A DNA stretch of 63,613 bases, counting the filler, from Reclinomonas americana ATCC 50394 (lineage: Eukaryota), in NCBI GenBank assembly GCA_048213135.1. It is 22 parts of 22 records of this genome, joined end to end, with 100 filler letters (N's around TTAATTAATTAA, not from the genome) between each part and the next. Parts side by side here need not be neighbours in the genome. Positions count along the whole stretch, not along the records: positions 1 to 1,969 come from AFZH01018557.1; positions 2,070 to 3,801 come from AFZH01018558.1; 20 more parts are not named here. The stretch is one strand, 5' to 3'. Both the position numbers and the translations under genes were made by a program. Positions 378-28,916 of the stretch are shown piece by piece. The notes under the pieces are model-generated. The model saw only the letters and a list, made by a program, of their open reading frames with translations, searched no databases and was not told the DNA's origin. Position 1 is the first letter of the stretch. Each line of letters begins with the position of its first letter.

Positions 378-3300
378 TACGAGGGCGAATTCCGCTTCGG
401 CAAGCCTGACGGGTGAGCATCCACACACGTCCCACTTCTTATTACTTTCCTCACTCTCCTACCATCCACCTCCACACACCCCAACAGCTACGGAGTGGTA
501 CGTGACGTCATGTTTCCCTCCCATCACCTCAATCCACGCCTCATAATATCTTCGTGCTGCTGCAGTACACTTGGCCATCTGGCAGGTGCGTCTCTCCGCC
601 AGAATTGCTCTCGTTCACGATTGTAATCCCCCTTGCTTCATCTCCGCAGCCGGTACGAGGGCGAGTGGCGAGAGGGACAGCTCAGCGGCAAAGTTGAGTT
701 TATTCTTTCCCCCTCTCGTGACCTGTGCATTGCTCATTCTTGTGCACGTGCAGGGTATGAGCCGCCACGATGAATCTGTCAGCATGTCTTTTACTCACTT
801 GGCGTGCTCGTGTTCATTCGTACGCAGGAATCGTTGCGTGTTTATTGCAGCCTCTCATTCCTGTCAGAATATCCTGCTGAACCATACACACGTACAGCAA
901 TCATACAGCGACGGATCTCGTTACGAGATAGGTATTCGTGCTATCCCACTCGTCTCCTGACATTGTGTGCTTATCTCGCATCCTTCTTTCGTGCCAACAC
1001 GCGACGTATTCGAACGACAAGAGGAATGGCTGGGGTGTCGTTGCGTCTTTTCTGGCACTCTCTCCCGTTCCTGTCCCACATTGTCTCATCCTGTGCGTCG
1101 CAGTGTTGCGTTGCTGTCGTCTTCGCTCTTGCATTCCTCACACCACGCTGATGTGCGAGCTCTGGTAGATTTTGGAGCCGAGGGCGACGTCTACGAGTTT
1201 CGTCCGATAGTCATGTCACTTTCTTCGTTTCCTTTTCGCTCACTTGATTCGCAGAGGCGAGTGGGTCGATGATTCGCGCGAAGGACACGGAAAGTCGCGT
1301 CATCACTTCACATCGCAGCTTCGGTCGAATCATGTACTAACGGCGATGGTTTGTGCAGGCACACGTGGCCATCTGGAGCGTACTACGACGGCGAGTGGAA
1401 AGCCAATGTGCGCCACGGCAAGTTGAGTGACGGAGACGCACAGGGATGCTTCTTTTCCTTTCTCTCTCTCACGCTTCTATTTTGCCTCCCCTCTCCTCTC
1501 CCTCTGCAGCGGCGTTCAAGTCATGGCCGACGGCACCAAATTCGTCTGCGAGTTCCGCAGCGACATGCGTGAGGGTTTCGGCACCATGTACATGCCGAAT
1601 GGCGACATTTACGAGGGAGAATGGCACAGTTCTGTTGGTGAACGAGTACGCACCTCACCTTGATCAATCTCACTATTCCGCAGATGACAAGAAGCACGGC
1701 TTTGGTGTGTACATTGCCGCCAATCAGTACCGCTTCGAGGGCAGGTGGGTGAATGGCCGGCGCGAGGGCAAAGGCGTTATGATTGCCGCCGACGGCCGCA
1801 CGTACTCGTGTGGTGAGTGAGGACATGGAGCTACTCGTCGCACCTCCCTTTCTTCATCACTTAATCCCACTCGCGTGCAGAGTACAAGGATGACATGCGT
1901 GAAGGTGGGCGAGAGTTGCTGATATCGCTCTATGAGGTCGCTCGTCGATTCTCATCGCTGTACACGCTCNNNNNNNNNNNNNNNNNNNNNNNNNNNNNNN
2001 NNNNNNNNNNNNNTTAATTAATTAANNNNNNNNNNNNNNNNNNNNNNNNNNNNNNNNNNNNNNNNNNNNCCTTCCCCTTAACCACCTTCCCCCCCTCCCC
2101 TTCCCCTCTCCCCTCTCCCGCCTCCCTTCCCCTCTCCCCTCTCCCCTTTACCCCTTCCCTTCCCCTCTCCCCTTCCCCTTTACCCCTTCCCCTTTACCTC
2201 CTTCCCCTTTACCCCTTCCCCTTAACCACCTTCCCCTTTACCCACTGTGTTTATCCCATTCAGGCTACGGCACGTATCGAGGACCTGACGGTTAGTCAAC
2301 AGCGCAGCAAGTCGACTGTGGGTGAGCTGCTCTGCTGACCCTCGTTTGTCACACAGGAGAGACATTTGAAGGGCACTTTGTCAACGATCTGCGGCAAGGT
2401 GTGATGAAATCACCCAGACCTGCATCCTCTTTCTCTCTTCTCATCTTTTGGTAGGATACGGCACGTACCGCGATCCGCGCGTGTCCACCTACGAGGGTGA
2501 ATGGCTGGCGAACAAGCGGCATGGTGCGTCAGCGCCGCTCTCTCAGATGCCTCTCATACCACACATTCACTATCTCTCCGCGCAGGTCAAGGGACCGAGC
2601 GCTGGGTCGACGGTCGTGTCTACCAAGGTGTGTCTTTCTGTCTCTCTGATGTAATCGAACTGTGACCTGAAATGTTGATTGTATGGAACAGGCACCTTCC
2701 GACAAGACAAGGCAGACGGGGGCGGCAAGTACACAGCTCCCAATGGTGTGCTGCTCACTCATTGATACGCACGCACGCCCTTCACTTGCACTGATGTGTG
2801 CATACAAATCAGGCGACGTGTACGACGGCCTGTGGAAGAACGGTCTGCAACACGGTCCCGGAATCTTCCAGTGGGGCAATGGCGAGAAGTACTCGGTTCG
2901 TCGTTTCTGGCCAACTCTTCCGGCGCTGGTGTTACTCGTGGCTCACTTGCTCTCTTTTGCACAGGGTGTTGCGTTGCACTCAACTTGTTGATCCACGTCG
3001 GGTGTCATTCTGTTCAAATATGTTGCGGTGCAGGAATGGGCCAACGGCAAGTTCTCTGGCTACGGAAGGTCGGTTGGCATTGTCGTCAGTCTCTTTCCCC
3101 AAACATGGACTGATGTGCATACCATGCAGACACGAGTACGCCAATGGCGACGTGTACGAGGGCGACTGGAAGGATGGGCGAGAGCACGGACAGTTGCGTG
3201 AAGTGGTTACTAGTTGTAGCACAATGAATGTGCTGACGTGTGATGCAGGGGCACGTACACGTTTGCCGACGGTCGCAAGTATGTTGGCGAGTACGTGGAC

Positions 3301-3532
3301 GGTGTGCGCCACGGATCGGGATCGTTGCGTGCTGCAGGCTGGAGTTGTCGTTATGCGAGTGTTTTTCTCACATCCTTTATCGTGGTGCAGATGTGCGTGC
3401 TTCTCATGTGTGTTTGCGAGTTTGTGAGCGTTGACTGACGCGTGTCTGTGTGTGTCTGTGCGTGTCGTGATTCTATGTGCATGGATATTGGTGCCTGTTC
3501 ATTTTCATGTGCTCCTTGGTGTTTGTAATCGC

Positions 3533-3602
<70 letters not shown>

Positions 3603-3713
3603 GTATTTCGTGTGTTCTCTGTGGATGCCTTCGGTGTCGTTATTCTGTGCATTGATTTTGATGGCTGTTCTTTTGCATGCGCGTCTTGGTGTATGTATTC
3701 GCGCATGTGTGTG

Positions 3714-3786
<73 letters not shown>

Positions 3787-5874
3787 TCTGTGTGTGTGTG
3801 TNNNNNNNNNNNNNNNNNNNNNNNNNNNNNNNNNNNNNNNNNNNNTTAATTAATTAANNNNNNNNNNNNNNNNNNNNNNNNNNNNNNNNNNNNNNNNNNN
3901 NTGTGTGTGTGTGTGTGCTTGTGTATTCTCTGTGGTGTCGTTGGTTGTGCACTTGTGTGCGATATGCTGCGTAATCGCGGCCACACTTTGGTTTCCTTTC
4001 CCTATCTGCGCTTCTCTCCTTGCCATGTCTATCGGCTCTCTTTCTGCTCCCTCCAACAGACGCTTGGCCGAATGGTGCGCTGCGACACATCGTGCGCCCA
4101 CGCCCTTGTGTGTATCTCTCTCTCACACCTACCATCAACAGGAAACGAGTACTCTGGTGGCTGGGTCAATGGCGTGCGCGAGGGACTGGGCACGGTGAGT
4201 GGCGTTGTAAATGTCGAGCATGTCTGTCATGTGCTCACTCATGTGGCTCCACAGTTCCGCTGGGCCTCCGGTGCGCTTTTCTTGGACTCCTCGTTCGGAC
4301 GTTGCTCGTATTTCTCATTGTAGCTTCACAGGCGACGTGTACGAGGGTGGCTGGGTGCAGGGCATGAAGTGCGGTCGCGGAGAGGTGATTCTTGCGTGTC
4401 GGCCTCCCATGCGTAGAAAACCTGCTGACTTGCTTTCGCACTCGCAGCAAGTATACGCCTCTGGCGAAACTTACATTGTACGTCACTGTTTAGATCTACC
4501 ATGGTTGCCTGTTGATGTCATTGTTTCTCACTTTGTACTGTGAATTGCAGGGTGTGAATATGACCTCTAAATACGCTCCTTGCATTGTGTCACTCACTCG
4601 TTGATCGTCTGTGCAGGGTTTGACTGCTCTCATCTGCATGTTCTAACTTTCATCTATTCTAACAATCTCTTCTTGTTGCAGCGAACATTTTAATGACAAG
4701 CGCGAAGGTGTGTTGGTCGATGCGTGCGTGCTCCCCCGCGTTCCGTTTCACTCATCAAGCGTTTGCAGGAAAGGGAGTGTGCGTAGTTTGTCAGTCTTTG
4801 CACACAAGTGGTAGCTTTCAACTCACATCTGCATGCTTTCCTGCTGTGCCTGCTACGGAAACTGCAGCTGTGAGTTGTCTTCTGCACTGTACCTATGCAT
4901 GCCAATCATGTCGCTCATGAGTACCTCTCCTCCCCTCGCAGATGTGAGTTTGTTGGCATTCGCCTCTCTCCTGTTGTTGCTACTCACACCTATTCGTGCA
5001 CTTGGATAGACTTGGGCCAATGGCGCTTGGTTGCGTTTCTGAGATTCGCTTCGTTGCTCGCCGCCCACCTGCTCACTGCGTCTGTTTCAATCTGCAGGTA
5101 CGACGGCGAGTGGAAGGTCTGTTGACGCCGCATTCGTTACATTTCGATGTGATATCCTGTCCTCACTGATCTGTCTCTTTGCGCAGGCTGGCATGCAACA
5201 TGGGTGCGTGATGCACGGTGTTTCATTGTGACTCGCGTAATCTAATCTCTGCCGTGACGAGCAGCAAGGGCACTCGACGATATGCCGATGGCTCGCGGTA
5301 CGTGTGGATTGCTCGCTTCCTTTTTCTGTATCTCTGCTTGCTCTGACCATTCATGGTGCACGCAGATACCAGGGTGAGTCATCGTGGTGGAAAGGGCTGA
5401 CTTGCTTGTTGTGTTTCCGACACCCCTTTTCCTCAGGCGAGTTCGTGGCGGATCGCAAGGAGGGCTTTGGCGAGTACGTGTGGCCGAACGGCAACTCGTA
5501 CATGGTTTGCGTTGGATTCTGAATCCGGTCCATTGACTCCCTCTCACAAATGTGATTGTGAACAACAGGGCGAGTGGCTGGATGACATGCGAAATGGAGG
5601 TGCGTGTGCTTGAGTGTCTACGCGTGTGTTGCGCATGCATCATGAGTGCCTGCGAGTGCATTTCTGGCTTCTTGTTTGTCTGCTTCATATTCTGCCGTTG
5701 CTGATACTGACGTTCTCTGTTGTGTGCTTGCACAGAGGGAACATTCATCTGGTAACGCGCGCCCTCCAAGCTGAGTACTCTCTGGCCGTGTCGCTTAATT
5801 TGTGTTTCTCCACAGGGCCGAAACCGGCGAAACGTACAGCGGTTTGTGGAGAAATGACAAGAAGGAGGGCTATG
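378..5874 (+). CDS. MORN-repeat protein, partial at both ends; about 46 exons, about 520 aa, about 22 repeats
   Basis: Manual splicing gives continuous MORN repeats: YEGEFRFGKPDGYGVYTWPSGSRYEGEWREGQLSGKGIQSYSDGSRYEATYSNDKRNGWGVYFGAEGDVYEGEWVDDSREGHGKHTWPSGAYYDGEW ... ETGETYSGLWRNDKKEGYG. Phase is kept across the spacers at 1970 and 3802. Microexons are at 754, 828-832, 1104, 2965-2967, 3391-3392, 4551, 4617, 4868-4869, 4942-4943 and 5366-5373. Confidence 0.93.
1970..2069. other. Artificial scaffold spacer (44 N + TTAATTAATTAA + 44 N); first of 21
   Basis: Identical 100-nt spacers start at 1970, 3802, 5915, 13549, 18828, 20276, 21688, 22987, 27113, 28917, 32504, 35995, 38886, 41476, 43488, 45360, 50528, 52349, 57396, 59416 and 60632. 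The 12-mer gives stops in all six frames. Many spacers abut microsatellites. Confidence 0.98.
3533..3801. repeat. Intronic (TTG)n and (TG)n microsatellites
   Basis: (TTG)n at about 3533-3601 and (TG)n at about 3706-3801, inside a MORN intron. They produce the spurious polyQ/L/C ORFs. Confidence 0.95.
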
Positions 5875-6018
5875 GTGCGTGCGTGTGTGTGCTTCCTCGT
5901 GCATTAATGCATTCNNNNNNNNNNNNNNNNNNNNNNNNNNNNNNNNNNNNNNNNNNNNTTAATTAATTAANNNNNNNNNNNNNNNNNNNNNNNNNNNNNN
6001 NNNNNNNNNNNNNNACAG

Positions 6019-27000: not shown

Positions 27001-27251
27001 GCGACTACAACAATACAGCGCACTTGCTCGTCACCAACGAGAAATCCAACAACCCAACAAAGAGCCCGTCCTACACACGTCCCGCAAATCAACTTTTGTG
27101 TCAATGCCACGCNNNNNNNNNNNNNNNNNNNNNNNNNNNNNNNNNNNNNNNNNNNNTTAATTAATTAANNNNNNNNNNNNNNNNNNNNNNNNNNNNNNNN
27201 NNNNNNNNNNNNTTCTATTGTGTACGTAGTACTAACTTTACCTTCGTCAGT

Positions 27252-27293
<42 letters not shown>

Positions 27294-27366
27294 TCCTTCG
27301 CTTTCCCCCTCTTATCTCCTTCGTGCCTGTCTTCTTTTATCTCACCCTTCCCTATTCTATCTGCAG

Positions 27367-28916
27367 AGATCCAAGGCCTCGACCCCGAGCAAATCTCCCG
27401 CTTTGTCGACTCTGGCGGCAACGTGCTCGTCATCACCGACGACACCGCCTCGGAGTACCTGCGTGAGGTGCGTCCCATTCCCCTCTGCCTCCCCTTCCCC
27501 CCGTCATTCCACTCACTCCCTCCCCCATCCCTCTACGCAGCTGGTGGGCGAGTGCGCTGGCGCGGAGCTCGACGACGCCGGCTACCGCGTCATTGACCAC
27601 GTGAACGCCTACACGGGCTTTGATGACGCGACAGGCGGCTCGGGGGCCAAGAAGGGCCGCAGGAAGGACGCCGAGCACCAGATTGTGCTCGCGCACGTCA
27701 TCAACGAGCTGAGCACGCTGGTGCCGGCGTCGTCGGCCCCGGTGGTGTACCGCGGCACAGCCATTGATGTGGATCGCAGCAACACGCTGGTGTCGGTGCT
27801 GTTGCGCGGCAGCGAGTTCTCCTACACGGGCTCGCCCGGCAAGGCCAAGCGTGTCGGTACCTCGTCCGGCATCGAGTTCGACACGCACCTGCGCAGCTCG
27901 GGCGACATGGCGCTGGCCATTAGCTTGCAGGCGCGCAATGGAGCGCGTGTGGTGGTCATGGCGTCGGTCGATGCCGTGTCGGATAAGTTTATGGATGCCA
28001 AGTTGGAGGAGTTGCGAATAGAGGGAAAGGCGGGGTGAGAGGGGAAAGGGAGGGCAACGGAGGGAGAAGGGTGGGCAACAGAGAGCAAGTCGTTACTTTT
28101 CCTGGCTTCGAGTCATGGTTCGCCGCCTCGATCTCTCGGTCTGTTGGTAGAGCTTGTTTGTGCGGACGCAAATCACTCCATCTCGACGTCTTGCTGTTTC
28201 TCTCTTTGATCATTTTGCGTCTCTTGATGCTTGCATCGTGTAGAGTGGAGAGCAGAGAGCAAGAGCTGCAACGGTTGACAGAGCTTGTTTGTGTGGACGC
28301 GCATTTGCGACATCTCGACCTCTTGTGTCATTGTTCTGTGACCTAGCTTCTCTCTTGAACATCGTACAACTGCGTTGGTTTTTGCATGGTTACAGAGTGG
28401 AGAGCATGAGTAAGGCATGAGGCCTTTCCTCACGTAGTCGCGTCATCTCGACCTCTTGCCCCTCTCGTTGCTCTCCCTCCGCTCTGCTCCTCTTGTTGCA
28501 CGTTCTCCGCTCTGCTCCTCTTTTTGCACATTATCTGCTCTGCTCCTCTCGTTGCGCTCCCTCCGCTCTGCTCCTCTCGTTGCACTCCCTCCGCTGTGCT
28601 CCTCTCGTGGTGATACGCTTCTCTTTCTGGTTCTCATCCCAAGGCGGCTCATATCTTCAGTACTGAGAGCGAGCGCCTTCCGCATTCCTTTCTCCGCTCT
28701 CTCTTCTCCCTTGTTTTCCTTCTCCCTTCTATACCTTCTCCCTTAATCTCACCCTTCCCCCTCCTCATCGCGCAGTGGCCGCGACGCCGGCAACCGCGCC
28801 TTCACCGAGAACCTCATCGACTGGTCCTTCCGCCAACGCGGTGTGCTGCGCATTGCGCGCGTGCACCACCAGCTCGTCGGCAAGGATCGCGCCCCGGAGG
28901 ACGGCTACCGCATTGG
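27367..28916 (+). CDS. WBP1: Oligosaccharyltransferase 48-kDa subunit (OST48/DDOST/Wbp1), partial
   Basis: ISRFVDSGGNVLV, RVIDHVN, LAISLQARNGARVVVMASVDAVSDKF and GNRAFTENLIDWSFRQRGVLRIARVHH. Exons at 27367-27467, 27541-about 28034 and 28776-28916. Confidence 0.93.

Follow-up and report, generated by a model that had tools for sequence, protein, structure and literature searches.

Exons of a single nucleotide (nt) have been described in plants and in fungi. In plants, such exons are found in Arabidopsis APC11 (PMC4674806) and, across land plants, in APC11 and VPS55 (PMC8831610), where they are conserved and have been proven by reverse-transcription polymerase chain reaction, RNA sequencing and reporter constructs. 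In Fusarium CYP621A, an AG-G-GT motif lies within a 139-nt interval, against a median intron of 56 nt, and the resulting 1-nt exon is backed by 20 orthologues, an intronless paralogue and Sequence Read Archive reads (PMC12940212). Long reads from Coprinopsis cinerea yielded 13 exons of 1 nt, 57 of 2 nt and 27 of 3 nt, over 89 gene models (PMC12230235). Here we analyze a MORN-repeat gene at the start of a 63,613-nt stretch of DNA from Reclinomonas americana ATCC 50394 (assembly GCA_048213135.1), the whole of which is called the window; two of its bases, G754 and T1104, probably represent genuine single-nucleotide exons, the gene being protein-coding and its host an intron-dense eukaryote. The structure is of a known kind and differs from those described in its density, in its consecutive 1-nt and 2-nt exons and in its lineage. 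The first-pass annotation of the window had regarded 1-nt exons as very rare; with APC11, VPS55, CYP621A and the 13 of Coprinopsis cinerea on record, they are less rare than it assumed.

Two further systems have to be considered. The recursive splice sites of Drosophila, or ratchet points, amount to zero-nt exons through which very long introns are removed stepwise. In fungi, stwintrons and the 1-nt intron shift involve the consecutive splicing of neighbouring short introns, with positions 1 nt apart in related sequences (PMC5587772).

A MORN-repeat gene with 42 modelled introns

The window consists of 22 contigs of 1–5 kb, strung together by stop-codon linkers (N-TTAATTAATTAA-N). A single MORN-repeat gene occupies the plus strand of the first three contigs (1–1969, 2070–3801 and 3902–5914), its coding region falling into the segments 378–1905, 2266–3336 and 4062–5877. 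Three of the four uninterrupted exons tested score above the 22.5-bit gathering cut-off of the Pfam MORN family PF02493 (26.2, 41.6 and 30.2 bits), to which the gene belongs. A window scan found no second MORN-like stretch or MORN paralogue elsewhere. A gene model built on codon usage only gave a nonsense product, because the codon bias is weak. Since codon usage and frame were insufficient, a MORN profile of 23 columns was built for spliced alignment from 33 repeats of three unrelated proteins; it was aligned cyclically to the DNA, allowing introns of 40–200 nt and carrying partial codons over introns. The resulting model comprises about 23 near-perfect repeats of 23 amino acids, encoded by 1572 nt and interrupted by 42 introns (41 GT-AG and one AT-AC), one per 37.4 nt of coding sequence. 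Of these introns, 33 have a length that is not divisible by three and 22 contain in-frame stops, and the 1572 nt are nevertheless read through without a stop or an unexplained frameshift. For this, the model requires seven exons of 3 nt or less, four of 1 nt and three of 2–3 nt (Table 1).

The introns are short and uniform in length, with a median of about 65 nt; 39 of the 42 measure 55–75 nt, the outliers being 88, 89 and 136 nt long. The 13 introns flanking exons of 5 nt or less formed the contested set, and splice matrices were trained on the 28 that lie apart from any such exon. The acceptor is strong: 27 of the 28 training introns have C at position −3. A CTNAY branch-like motif is present in 12 of the 13 contested introns, compared with 25 of the 28 uncontested ones, and 11 of the 13 contested acceptors score no lower than the 93rd percentile of the AG sites that are not used. 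The two weak ones, at 1168 (67th percentile) and 5009 (84th), are both TAG. The introns that flank tiny exons are complete on their own, with lengths of 61–89 nt, an acceptor tract and, nearly always, a branch motif.

The heptamer GTTGCGT is an unusual and frequent form of the 5′ splice site. It occurs at 23 sites in the window (among them 833, 1040, 1105, 2968, 3193, 3324, 5030, 8164, 9099 and 10340) where 9.35 are expected, a number reached by none of 100 shuffles, and it opens six of the 42 modelled introns. A good acceptor follows 50–94 nt downstream at 13 of the 23 sites, in comparison with 3/23, 6/12 and 4/14 for control heptamers.

One intron, at 928–1000, is of the AT-AC type, which went unmentioned in the first-pass annotation. 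GT-AG introns alone cannot rebuild the repeat that contains it. U12-type AT-AC introns are characterized by a 5′ ATATCCTT and by a TCCTTAAC-like branch near the 3′ end; the intron at 928–1000 starts with ATAGGTATT and lacks a branch motif of this kind, and thus looks like a U2-type intron with A in place of the first G and C in place of the last.

Table 1. Features of the MORN-repeat gene, in window coordinates
Position	Strand	Feature	Support
378–5877	+	MORN-repeat coding region	Pfam matches on uninterrupted exons; profile-guided spliced alignment
693–753	+	Intron, 61 nt, GTTGAG...GTGCAG; CTCAT branch-like motif 17 nt from 3′ end	Acceptor at 100th percentile of unused AG sites
754	+	1-nt exon G, first base of the invariant Gly at column 13	Called in 29/45 parameter sets
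755–827	+	Intron, 73 nt, GTATGA...ACGCAG; CTCAC motif	Acceptor at 99th percentile
828–832	+	5-nt exon GAATC	Sequence and spliced alignment
833–897	+	Intron, 65 nt, start GTTGCGT	Sequence and length
928–1000	+	AT-AC intron, 73 nt, ATAGGT...CAACAC	Joins exon 898–927 to 1001–1039 in frame
1040–1103	+	Intron, 64 nt, GTTGCGT...TCGCAG; CTCAT motif 15 nt from 3′ end	Acceptor at 93rd percentile
1104	+	1-nt exon T, first base of Tyr at variable column 15	Called in 34/45 parameter sets
1105–1168	+	Intron, 64 nt, GTTGCGT...TGGTAG; CTGAT motif, weak acceptor	Acceptor at 67th percentile
2965–2967	+	3-nt exon GGT, Gly at column 2, between introns 2896–2964 (69 nt) and 2968–3033 (66 nt, GTTGCGT)	38/45 sets; alternative 5.0 nats worse
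4551	+	1-nt exon G, first base of Gly codon at column 2, after intron 4478–4550 (73 nt)	40/45 sets; alternative 6.6 nats worse
4617	+	1-nt exon G, second base of the same Gly codon, between introns 4552–4616 (65 nt) and 4618–4681 (64 nt)	35/45 sets; alternative 7.3 nats worse
4868–4869	+	2-nt exon CT, between introns 4779–4867 (89 nt) and 4870–4941 (72 nt)	29/45 sets; alternative 0.6 nats worse
4942–4943	+	2-nt exon AT, between introns 4870–4941 and 4944–5009 (66 nt)	30/45 sets; alternative 0.6 nats worse

The probable single-base exons at 754 and 1104

The exon at 650–692 ends in AAA, and G754 stands between a CAG (751–753) and a GTATGA that begins at 755. In the same way, the exon at 1001–1039 ends in GTC, T1104 is enclosed by a CAG (1101–1103) and a GTTGCG starting at 1105, and the next exon starts with ATTTT at 1169. 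When both bases are kept, the translation reads K-G-I around G754 and V-Y-F around T1104. The coordinates and AG-N-GT motifs given for both bases in the first-pass annotation are exact in the raw sequence, and the flanking introns, which it placed at 61–73 nt, measure 61, 73, 64 and 64 nt. The anatomy of the two sites, their requirement for frame and register and the normal look of the introns around them are direct observations.

In an alignment restricted to GT-AG introns, the best parse picks G754 and fails to rebuild the next repeat. With all 256 boundary pairs open at a penalty, the region 898–1293 is best read with the AT-AC intron 928–1000 and a 1-nt exon at T1104. The best alternative at G754 trails by 3.0 nats and relies on a GC-AG intron; at T1104 it trails by 3.6 nats, and T remains a 1-nt exon when either of its flanking introns is forbidden. 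The residue that G754 opens belongs to the most constant position of the repeat, since Gly is found at column 13 in 23 of 23 repeats here and in 33 of 33 external ones.

Five further probable exons of one to three nucleotides

The reading of G754 and T1104 as exons gains credibility from five further exons of 1–3 nt that the gene requires. AG lies directly 5′ and GT directly 3′ of all seven exons of 3 nt or less. The exons at 2965–2967, 4551 and 4617 all serve the Gly of column 2, which is present in 20 of the 23 repeats, and in the last two cases a single Gly codon (G4551, G4617 and C4682) is split over three exons by consecutive 1-nt exons. Likewise, CT at 4868–4869 and AT at 4942–4943 are consecutive 2-nt exons. 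For the former, a rival 2-nt exon at 4875–4876 gives the same residues at a cost of only 0.6 nats; that there are tiny exons is thus more secure than which bases form the one at 4868. T1104, as the first-pass annotation had recognized, cannot be produced by sliding a single junction, and neither can GGT at 2965 nor the CT and AT at 4868 and 4942. Omission of the tiny exons breaks the frame or a conserved motif, the evidence being moderate at each site and strong jointly.

Another 2-nt exon may be present at 3391–3392, where AT follows an intron at 3324–3390 (67 nt, with a GTTGCGT start) and precedes GTGCGT. Downstream of it there are (GTT)n and (GT)n repeats and then the gap.

When exons shorter than 4 nt were forbidden, the alignment scores of the three contigs fell by 7.1, 5.0 and 19.3 nats, and the replacement parses resorted to GC-AG or odd AT-AC introns and to repeats of 22 or 24 amino acids. 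Over a parameter grid of 45 sets, the seven tiny exons were each called in 29–40. The tendency of the method to invent tiny exons, as distinct from the gene model itself, was gauged with 75 decoy genes, made by re-inserting real introns at least 6 nt apart into the inferred coding sequence: 1026 of the 1050 decoy introns were recovered exactly, and only two false exons of 3 nt or less appeared, both within one decoy. A scan of both strands of the window for two intron-like units separated by 1–3 nt returned 754, 4551 and 4617 only. The claim in the first-pass annotation that this organism uses 1-nt exons routinely is supported within this gene only; in the other ~58 kb, this stringent scan found no further site.

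Weight of the evidence and alternative explanations

Several observations weigh against reading G754 and T1104 as exons. Support per site is moderate, as given by the 3.0 nats at G754 and the 3.6 nats at T1104. The first-pass annotation held that both bases are required to keep the frame; register across the MORN repeat does select them, but frame alone does not, as 146 of 674 GT-AG combinations between 686 and 904 keep it without a stop, and the 1-nt model at 754 is selected by MORN register. It also held that the repeat consensus predicts both residues, which is correct for Gly and fails for Tyr: column 15 is not conserved, Tyr being its commonest residue here (9/23, two of these built from tiny exons) and occurring in only 2 of the 33 external repeats. 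The acceptor after T1104, TGGTAG, is at the 67th percentile only, and immediately upstream of the repeat with T1104 the model has to admit an AT-AC intron. The donor sites of the gene carry next to no information, with a leave-one-out mean of 0.46 versus 0.91 below zero for background GT sites. One genuine intron of 136 nt, at 5600–5735, indicates that long introns are possible. The controls are not fully independent, given that the aligner has a preference for MORN-like products, that the decoys were made from the inferred coding sequence and that the matrix of the window scan was trained partly on contested introns. The searched protein collections contained no annotated or transcript-derived protein from this organism, and neither they nor the metagenome contigs offered a close homologue or a relative of the locus in which the same bases might be seen uninterrupted by introns. 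Base-level errors are possible in a fragmented assembly of 1–5 kb contigs, and it is from genomic sequence that the presence of the tiny exons in the mRNA is deduced.

The 136-nt intron itself can be split, at a 1-nt exon at 5657, only under a strong length prior; this split was rejected, as it brings a GC-AG intron, a poor acceptor and a worse repeat.

Each of the intron pairs around the single bases could instead be one intron of ~130 nt with a shifted non-canonical junction, the internal AG-N-GT being a coincidence or a leftover. At 693–827, this would be a 134-nt intron of the TT-AG or GT-CA type and the mRNA would be identical, because 693 and 827 are both G; at 1040–1168, the junction would be TT-AG or GT-TA and Asp would take the place of Tyr. 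The AT-AC intron of the same gene makes non-GT-AG splicing possible, and one long intron does exist. Such a reading is unlikely, all the same. If merged over the tiny exons, the introns would measure 135, 129, 138, 204 and 231 nt, which means five outliers in a gene where 39 of the 42 introns lie within 55–75 nt; the 135- and 129-nt ones would be outliers carrying an AG-N-GT at their midpoint by chance. Each half, moreover, has its own branch-like motif and, in most cases, a strong acceptor, and the aligner kept the two-intron model with all boundary pairs allowed. Sliding could not produce the 3-nt and 2-nt exons, and Asp is found at column 15 in none of 56 repeats.

Exons that are short, but longer than 1 nt, would come at the two sites as a 7-nt exon (754–760) followed by a GC-AG intron (761–827) and as a 6-nt exon (1104–1109) between GT-AG introns at 1035–1103 and 1110–1168. 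These are the best parses when exons below 4 nt are forbidden and their joint cost is only 7.1 nats; the version at 1104–1109 uses GT-AG sites only, with donor scores no worse than those of the 1-nt model. We consider this solution very unlikely, since the same escape costs 19.3 nats in the third contig, the donor of the 754–760 version (GCCGCCA) falls at the 1st percentile, with no GC-AG intron among the 42, and the 1104–1109 version loses the invariant second Gly of the G-x-G motif and gives a repeat of 24 amino acids. It is equally hard to believe that the locus, as assembled, is not a working gene, being a pseudogene or bearing single-base assembly errors, so that the tiny exons would be artefacts of forcing the frame. 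The fragmentation of the assembly and the bias of the aligner to MORN-like output would agree with this, as would the fact that a protein database search found no homologue supporting the MORN model. Against it stands the uninterrupted reading of ~23 repeats across 42 introns, whose lengths and in-frame stops demand precise removal, and every rescue of the frame is a ready-made AG-N(1-3)-GT at intron-length spacing, which the decoys did not supply. Single-nucleotide exons at 754 and 1104 are the best explanation of the two sites, and a probable one.

A proposed splicing mechanism indifferent to exon length

The bases of the tiny exons would be carried in the mRNA, an inference drawn from the frame and repeat register, which remain intact across all 42 introns. 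Each intron is proposed to be recognized across itself, through its 5′ GT, a CTNAY branch ~20 nt from the 3′ end, a C/T-rich tract followed by CAG and a narrow range of lengths; the narrow lengths, the internal branch and acceptor signals and the weakness of the donor argue for this mode of recognition. Under intron definition the length of an exon would be irrelevant, and whatever bases are left between U2-type introns of ~65 nt spaced 1–3 nt apart would be exons. As the footprint of the downstream donor would overlap the AG of the upstream intron, the two introns would have to be excised in succession. Removal of the first would fuse the lone base to a normal exon and make the second an ordinary intron, following the principle of recursive splicing but with one base left over. 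Splicing of the upstream intron turns the donor context at 754 from AGG/GT into AAG/GT. The latter is a slightly better match to the usual exon-end consensus.

More broadly, and tentatively, since we would give it somewhat less than an even chance, the spliceosome of this organism may have no lower limit of exon size. Introns would be defined from within, by a weak GT, the CTNAY motif, the CAG and a ruler of ~65 nt, exons of 3 nt or less would be at least as frequent as under random placement, and new introns gained beside old ones would create 1-nt exons.

Positions and origin of the introns

The 42 introns use 22 distinct offsets within the 69-nt repeat unit, where 31.6 ± 2.1 are expected, and none of 20000 simulations gave a number as low. 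Four zones, at offsets 5–10, 34–40, 44–48 and 61–68, cover 26 of the 69 positions and hold 39 of the 42 introns, the same or neighbouring positions recurring across many repeats. Tiny exons are found where one repeat has introns at two or three adjacent positions of a single zone. With 42 introns placed at random, 3.4 exons of 3 nt or less would be expected, compared with the seven seen (P(≥7) = 0.040), and 1.16 exons of 1 nt, compared with four (P(≥4) = 0.027). Tiny exons are not depleted but mildly enriched, which would fit an exon size that is not under selection together with hot spots of intron gain.

Among the introns of the gene, no similarity exceeding that of shuffled sequences was detected (best real pair 15, best shuffled pair 16), and the pairs that flank tiny exons score 6–9. 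Neighbouring introns are therefore neither recent tandem duplicates nor members of a recognizable introner family, and both origins were ruled out; nothing introner-like, that is, no similarity beyond the splice signals, is seen among them.

Neighbouring sequence and source lineage

Neighbouring open reading frames (ORFs) of the window encode NACHT, WD40, TPR, LRR, DENN and OST48-like domains, and hence point to a eukaryotic source. The contig at 6016–13548 carries, on the plus strand, NACHT and WD40 parts in ORFs of 0.4–2.9 kb with few introns, an intron density far below that of the MORN part. The OST48-like ORF at 27214–28038 reaches at most 44–45% identity to 1.84 billion representative proteins; 23 matches have E up to 0.001 and none has E up to 1e-10, and those with names come from Picozoa and Cyanophora. 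From the weakness of these matches, the lineage is poorly sampled, and apparently no close relative of the source organism is among the sampled ones.

Other searches were in part negative. The OST48-like ORF, N included, had no match in the protein database, the NACHT ORF had none among its longer proteins, and of 596 pattern matches of the NACHT ORF in metagenome contigs none was confirmed. The MORN exon at 1686–1811 retrieved from the protein database only distant MORN proteins, with 38–57% identity, and an exact 40-nt stretch of a MORN exon had no match in metagenome contigs. Rfam gave no match over the window. At 2070–2250, long C/T-rich repeats adjoin the end of a contig; at 3530–3800, microsatellites of the types (GTT)n and (GT)n precede a gap.

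Discussion

The MORN gene shares with plant APC11 and VPS55 a single base held between AG and GT, whose omission breaks the frame and which annotation pipelines miss. G754 resembles the exon of Fusarium CYP621A, where the base is also part of a conserved Gly codon, the interval is about twice the median intron and the argument is likewise one of frame and motif. The plant genes have one such exon each and the Fusarium exon has support from orthologues, the intronless paralogue and reads, whereas the MORN gene has four 1-nt and three 2–3-nt exons, some of them consecutive, which are predicted from its own genomic sequence. Coprinopsis cinerea is alike in being a short-intron organism in which exons of 1–3 nt recur genome-wide, and it fits the idea that exon size has no lower limit under intron definition. 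Its tiny exons are spread over 89 gene models, in contrast to seven in one gene with 1572 coding nt, and the organism studied here appears not to be closely related to anything sampled.

The ratchet points of Drosophila resemble these sites in that an acceptor is directly followed by a donor, removal is stepwise and the upstream ligation builds the context of the next 5′ splice site. They leave no base, whereas in the MORN gene introns of ~65 nt are separated by 1–3 bases, which lie between AG and GT and are needed for the frame; the gene has no zero-nt recursive site. In a stwintron, a splice signal of the outer intron is interrupted by the inner one, with no base remaining between the two (PMC5587772), whereas the frame of the MORN gene requires the base. 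Here the removal of either intron leaves an ordinary intron and keeps the base, without restoring any split signal. We found no report of consecutive or adjacent exons as small as these in the literature, where supplementary data could hold such cases.

If RNA confirms the structure, no other known cluster of exons of 3 nt or less would be as dense as that of the MORN gene, which would also give the first case found of two consecutive single-base exons within one codon. This would argue that exon length is irrelevant to the pairing of splice sites under intron definition with short introns. Genes with such a structure will be missing or wrong in the automatic annotation of intron-dense protists, given that a generic codon-usage model of the MORN locus gave nonsense.

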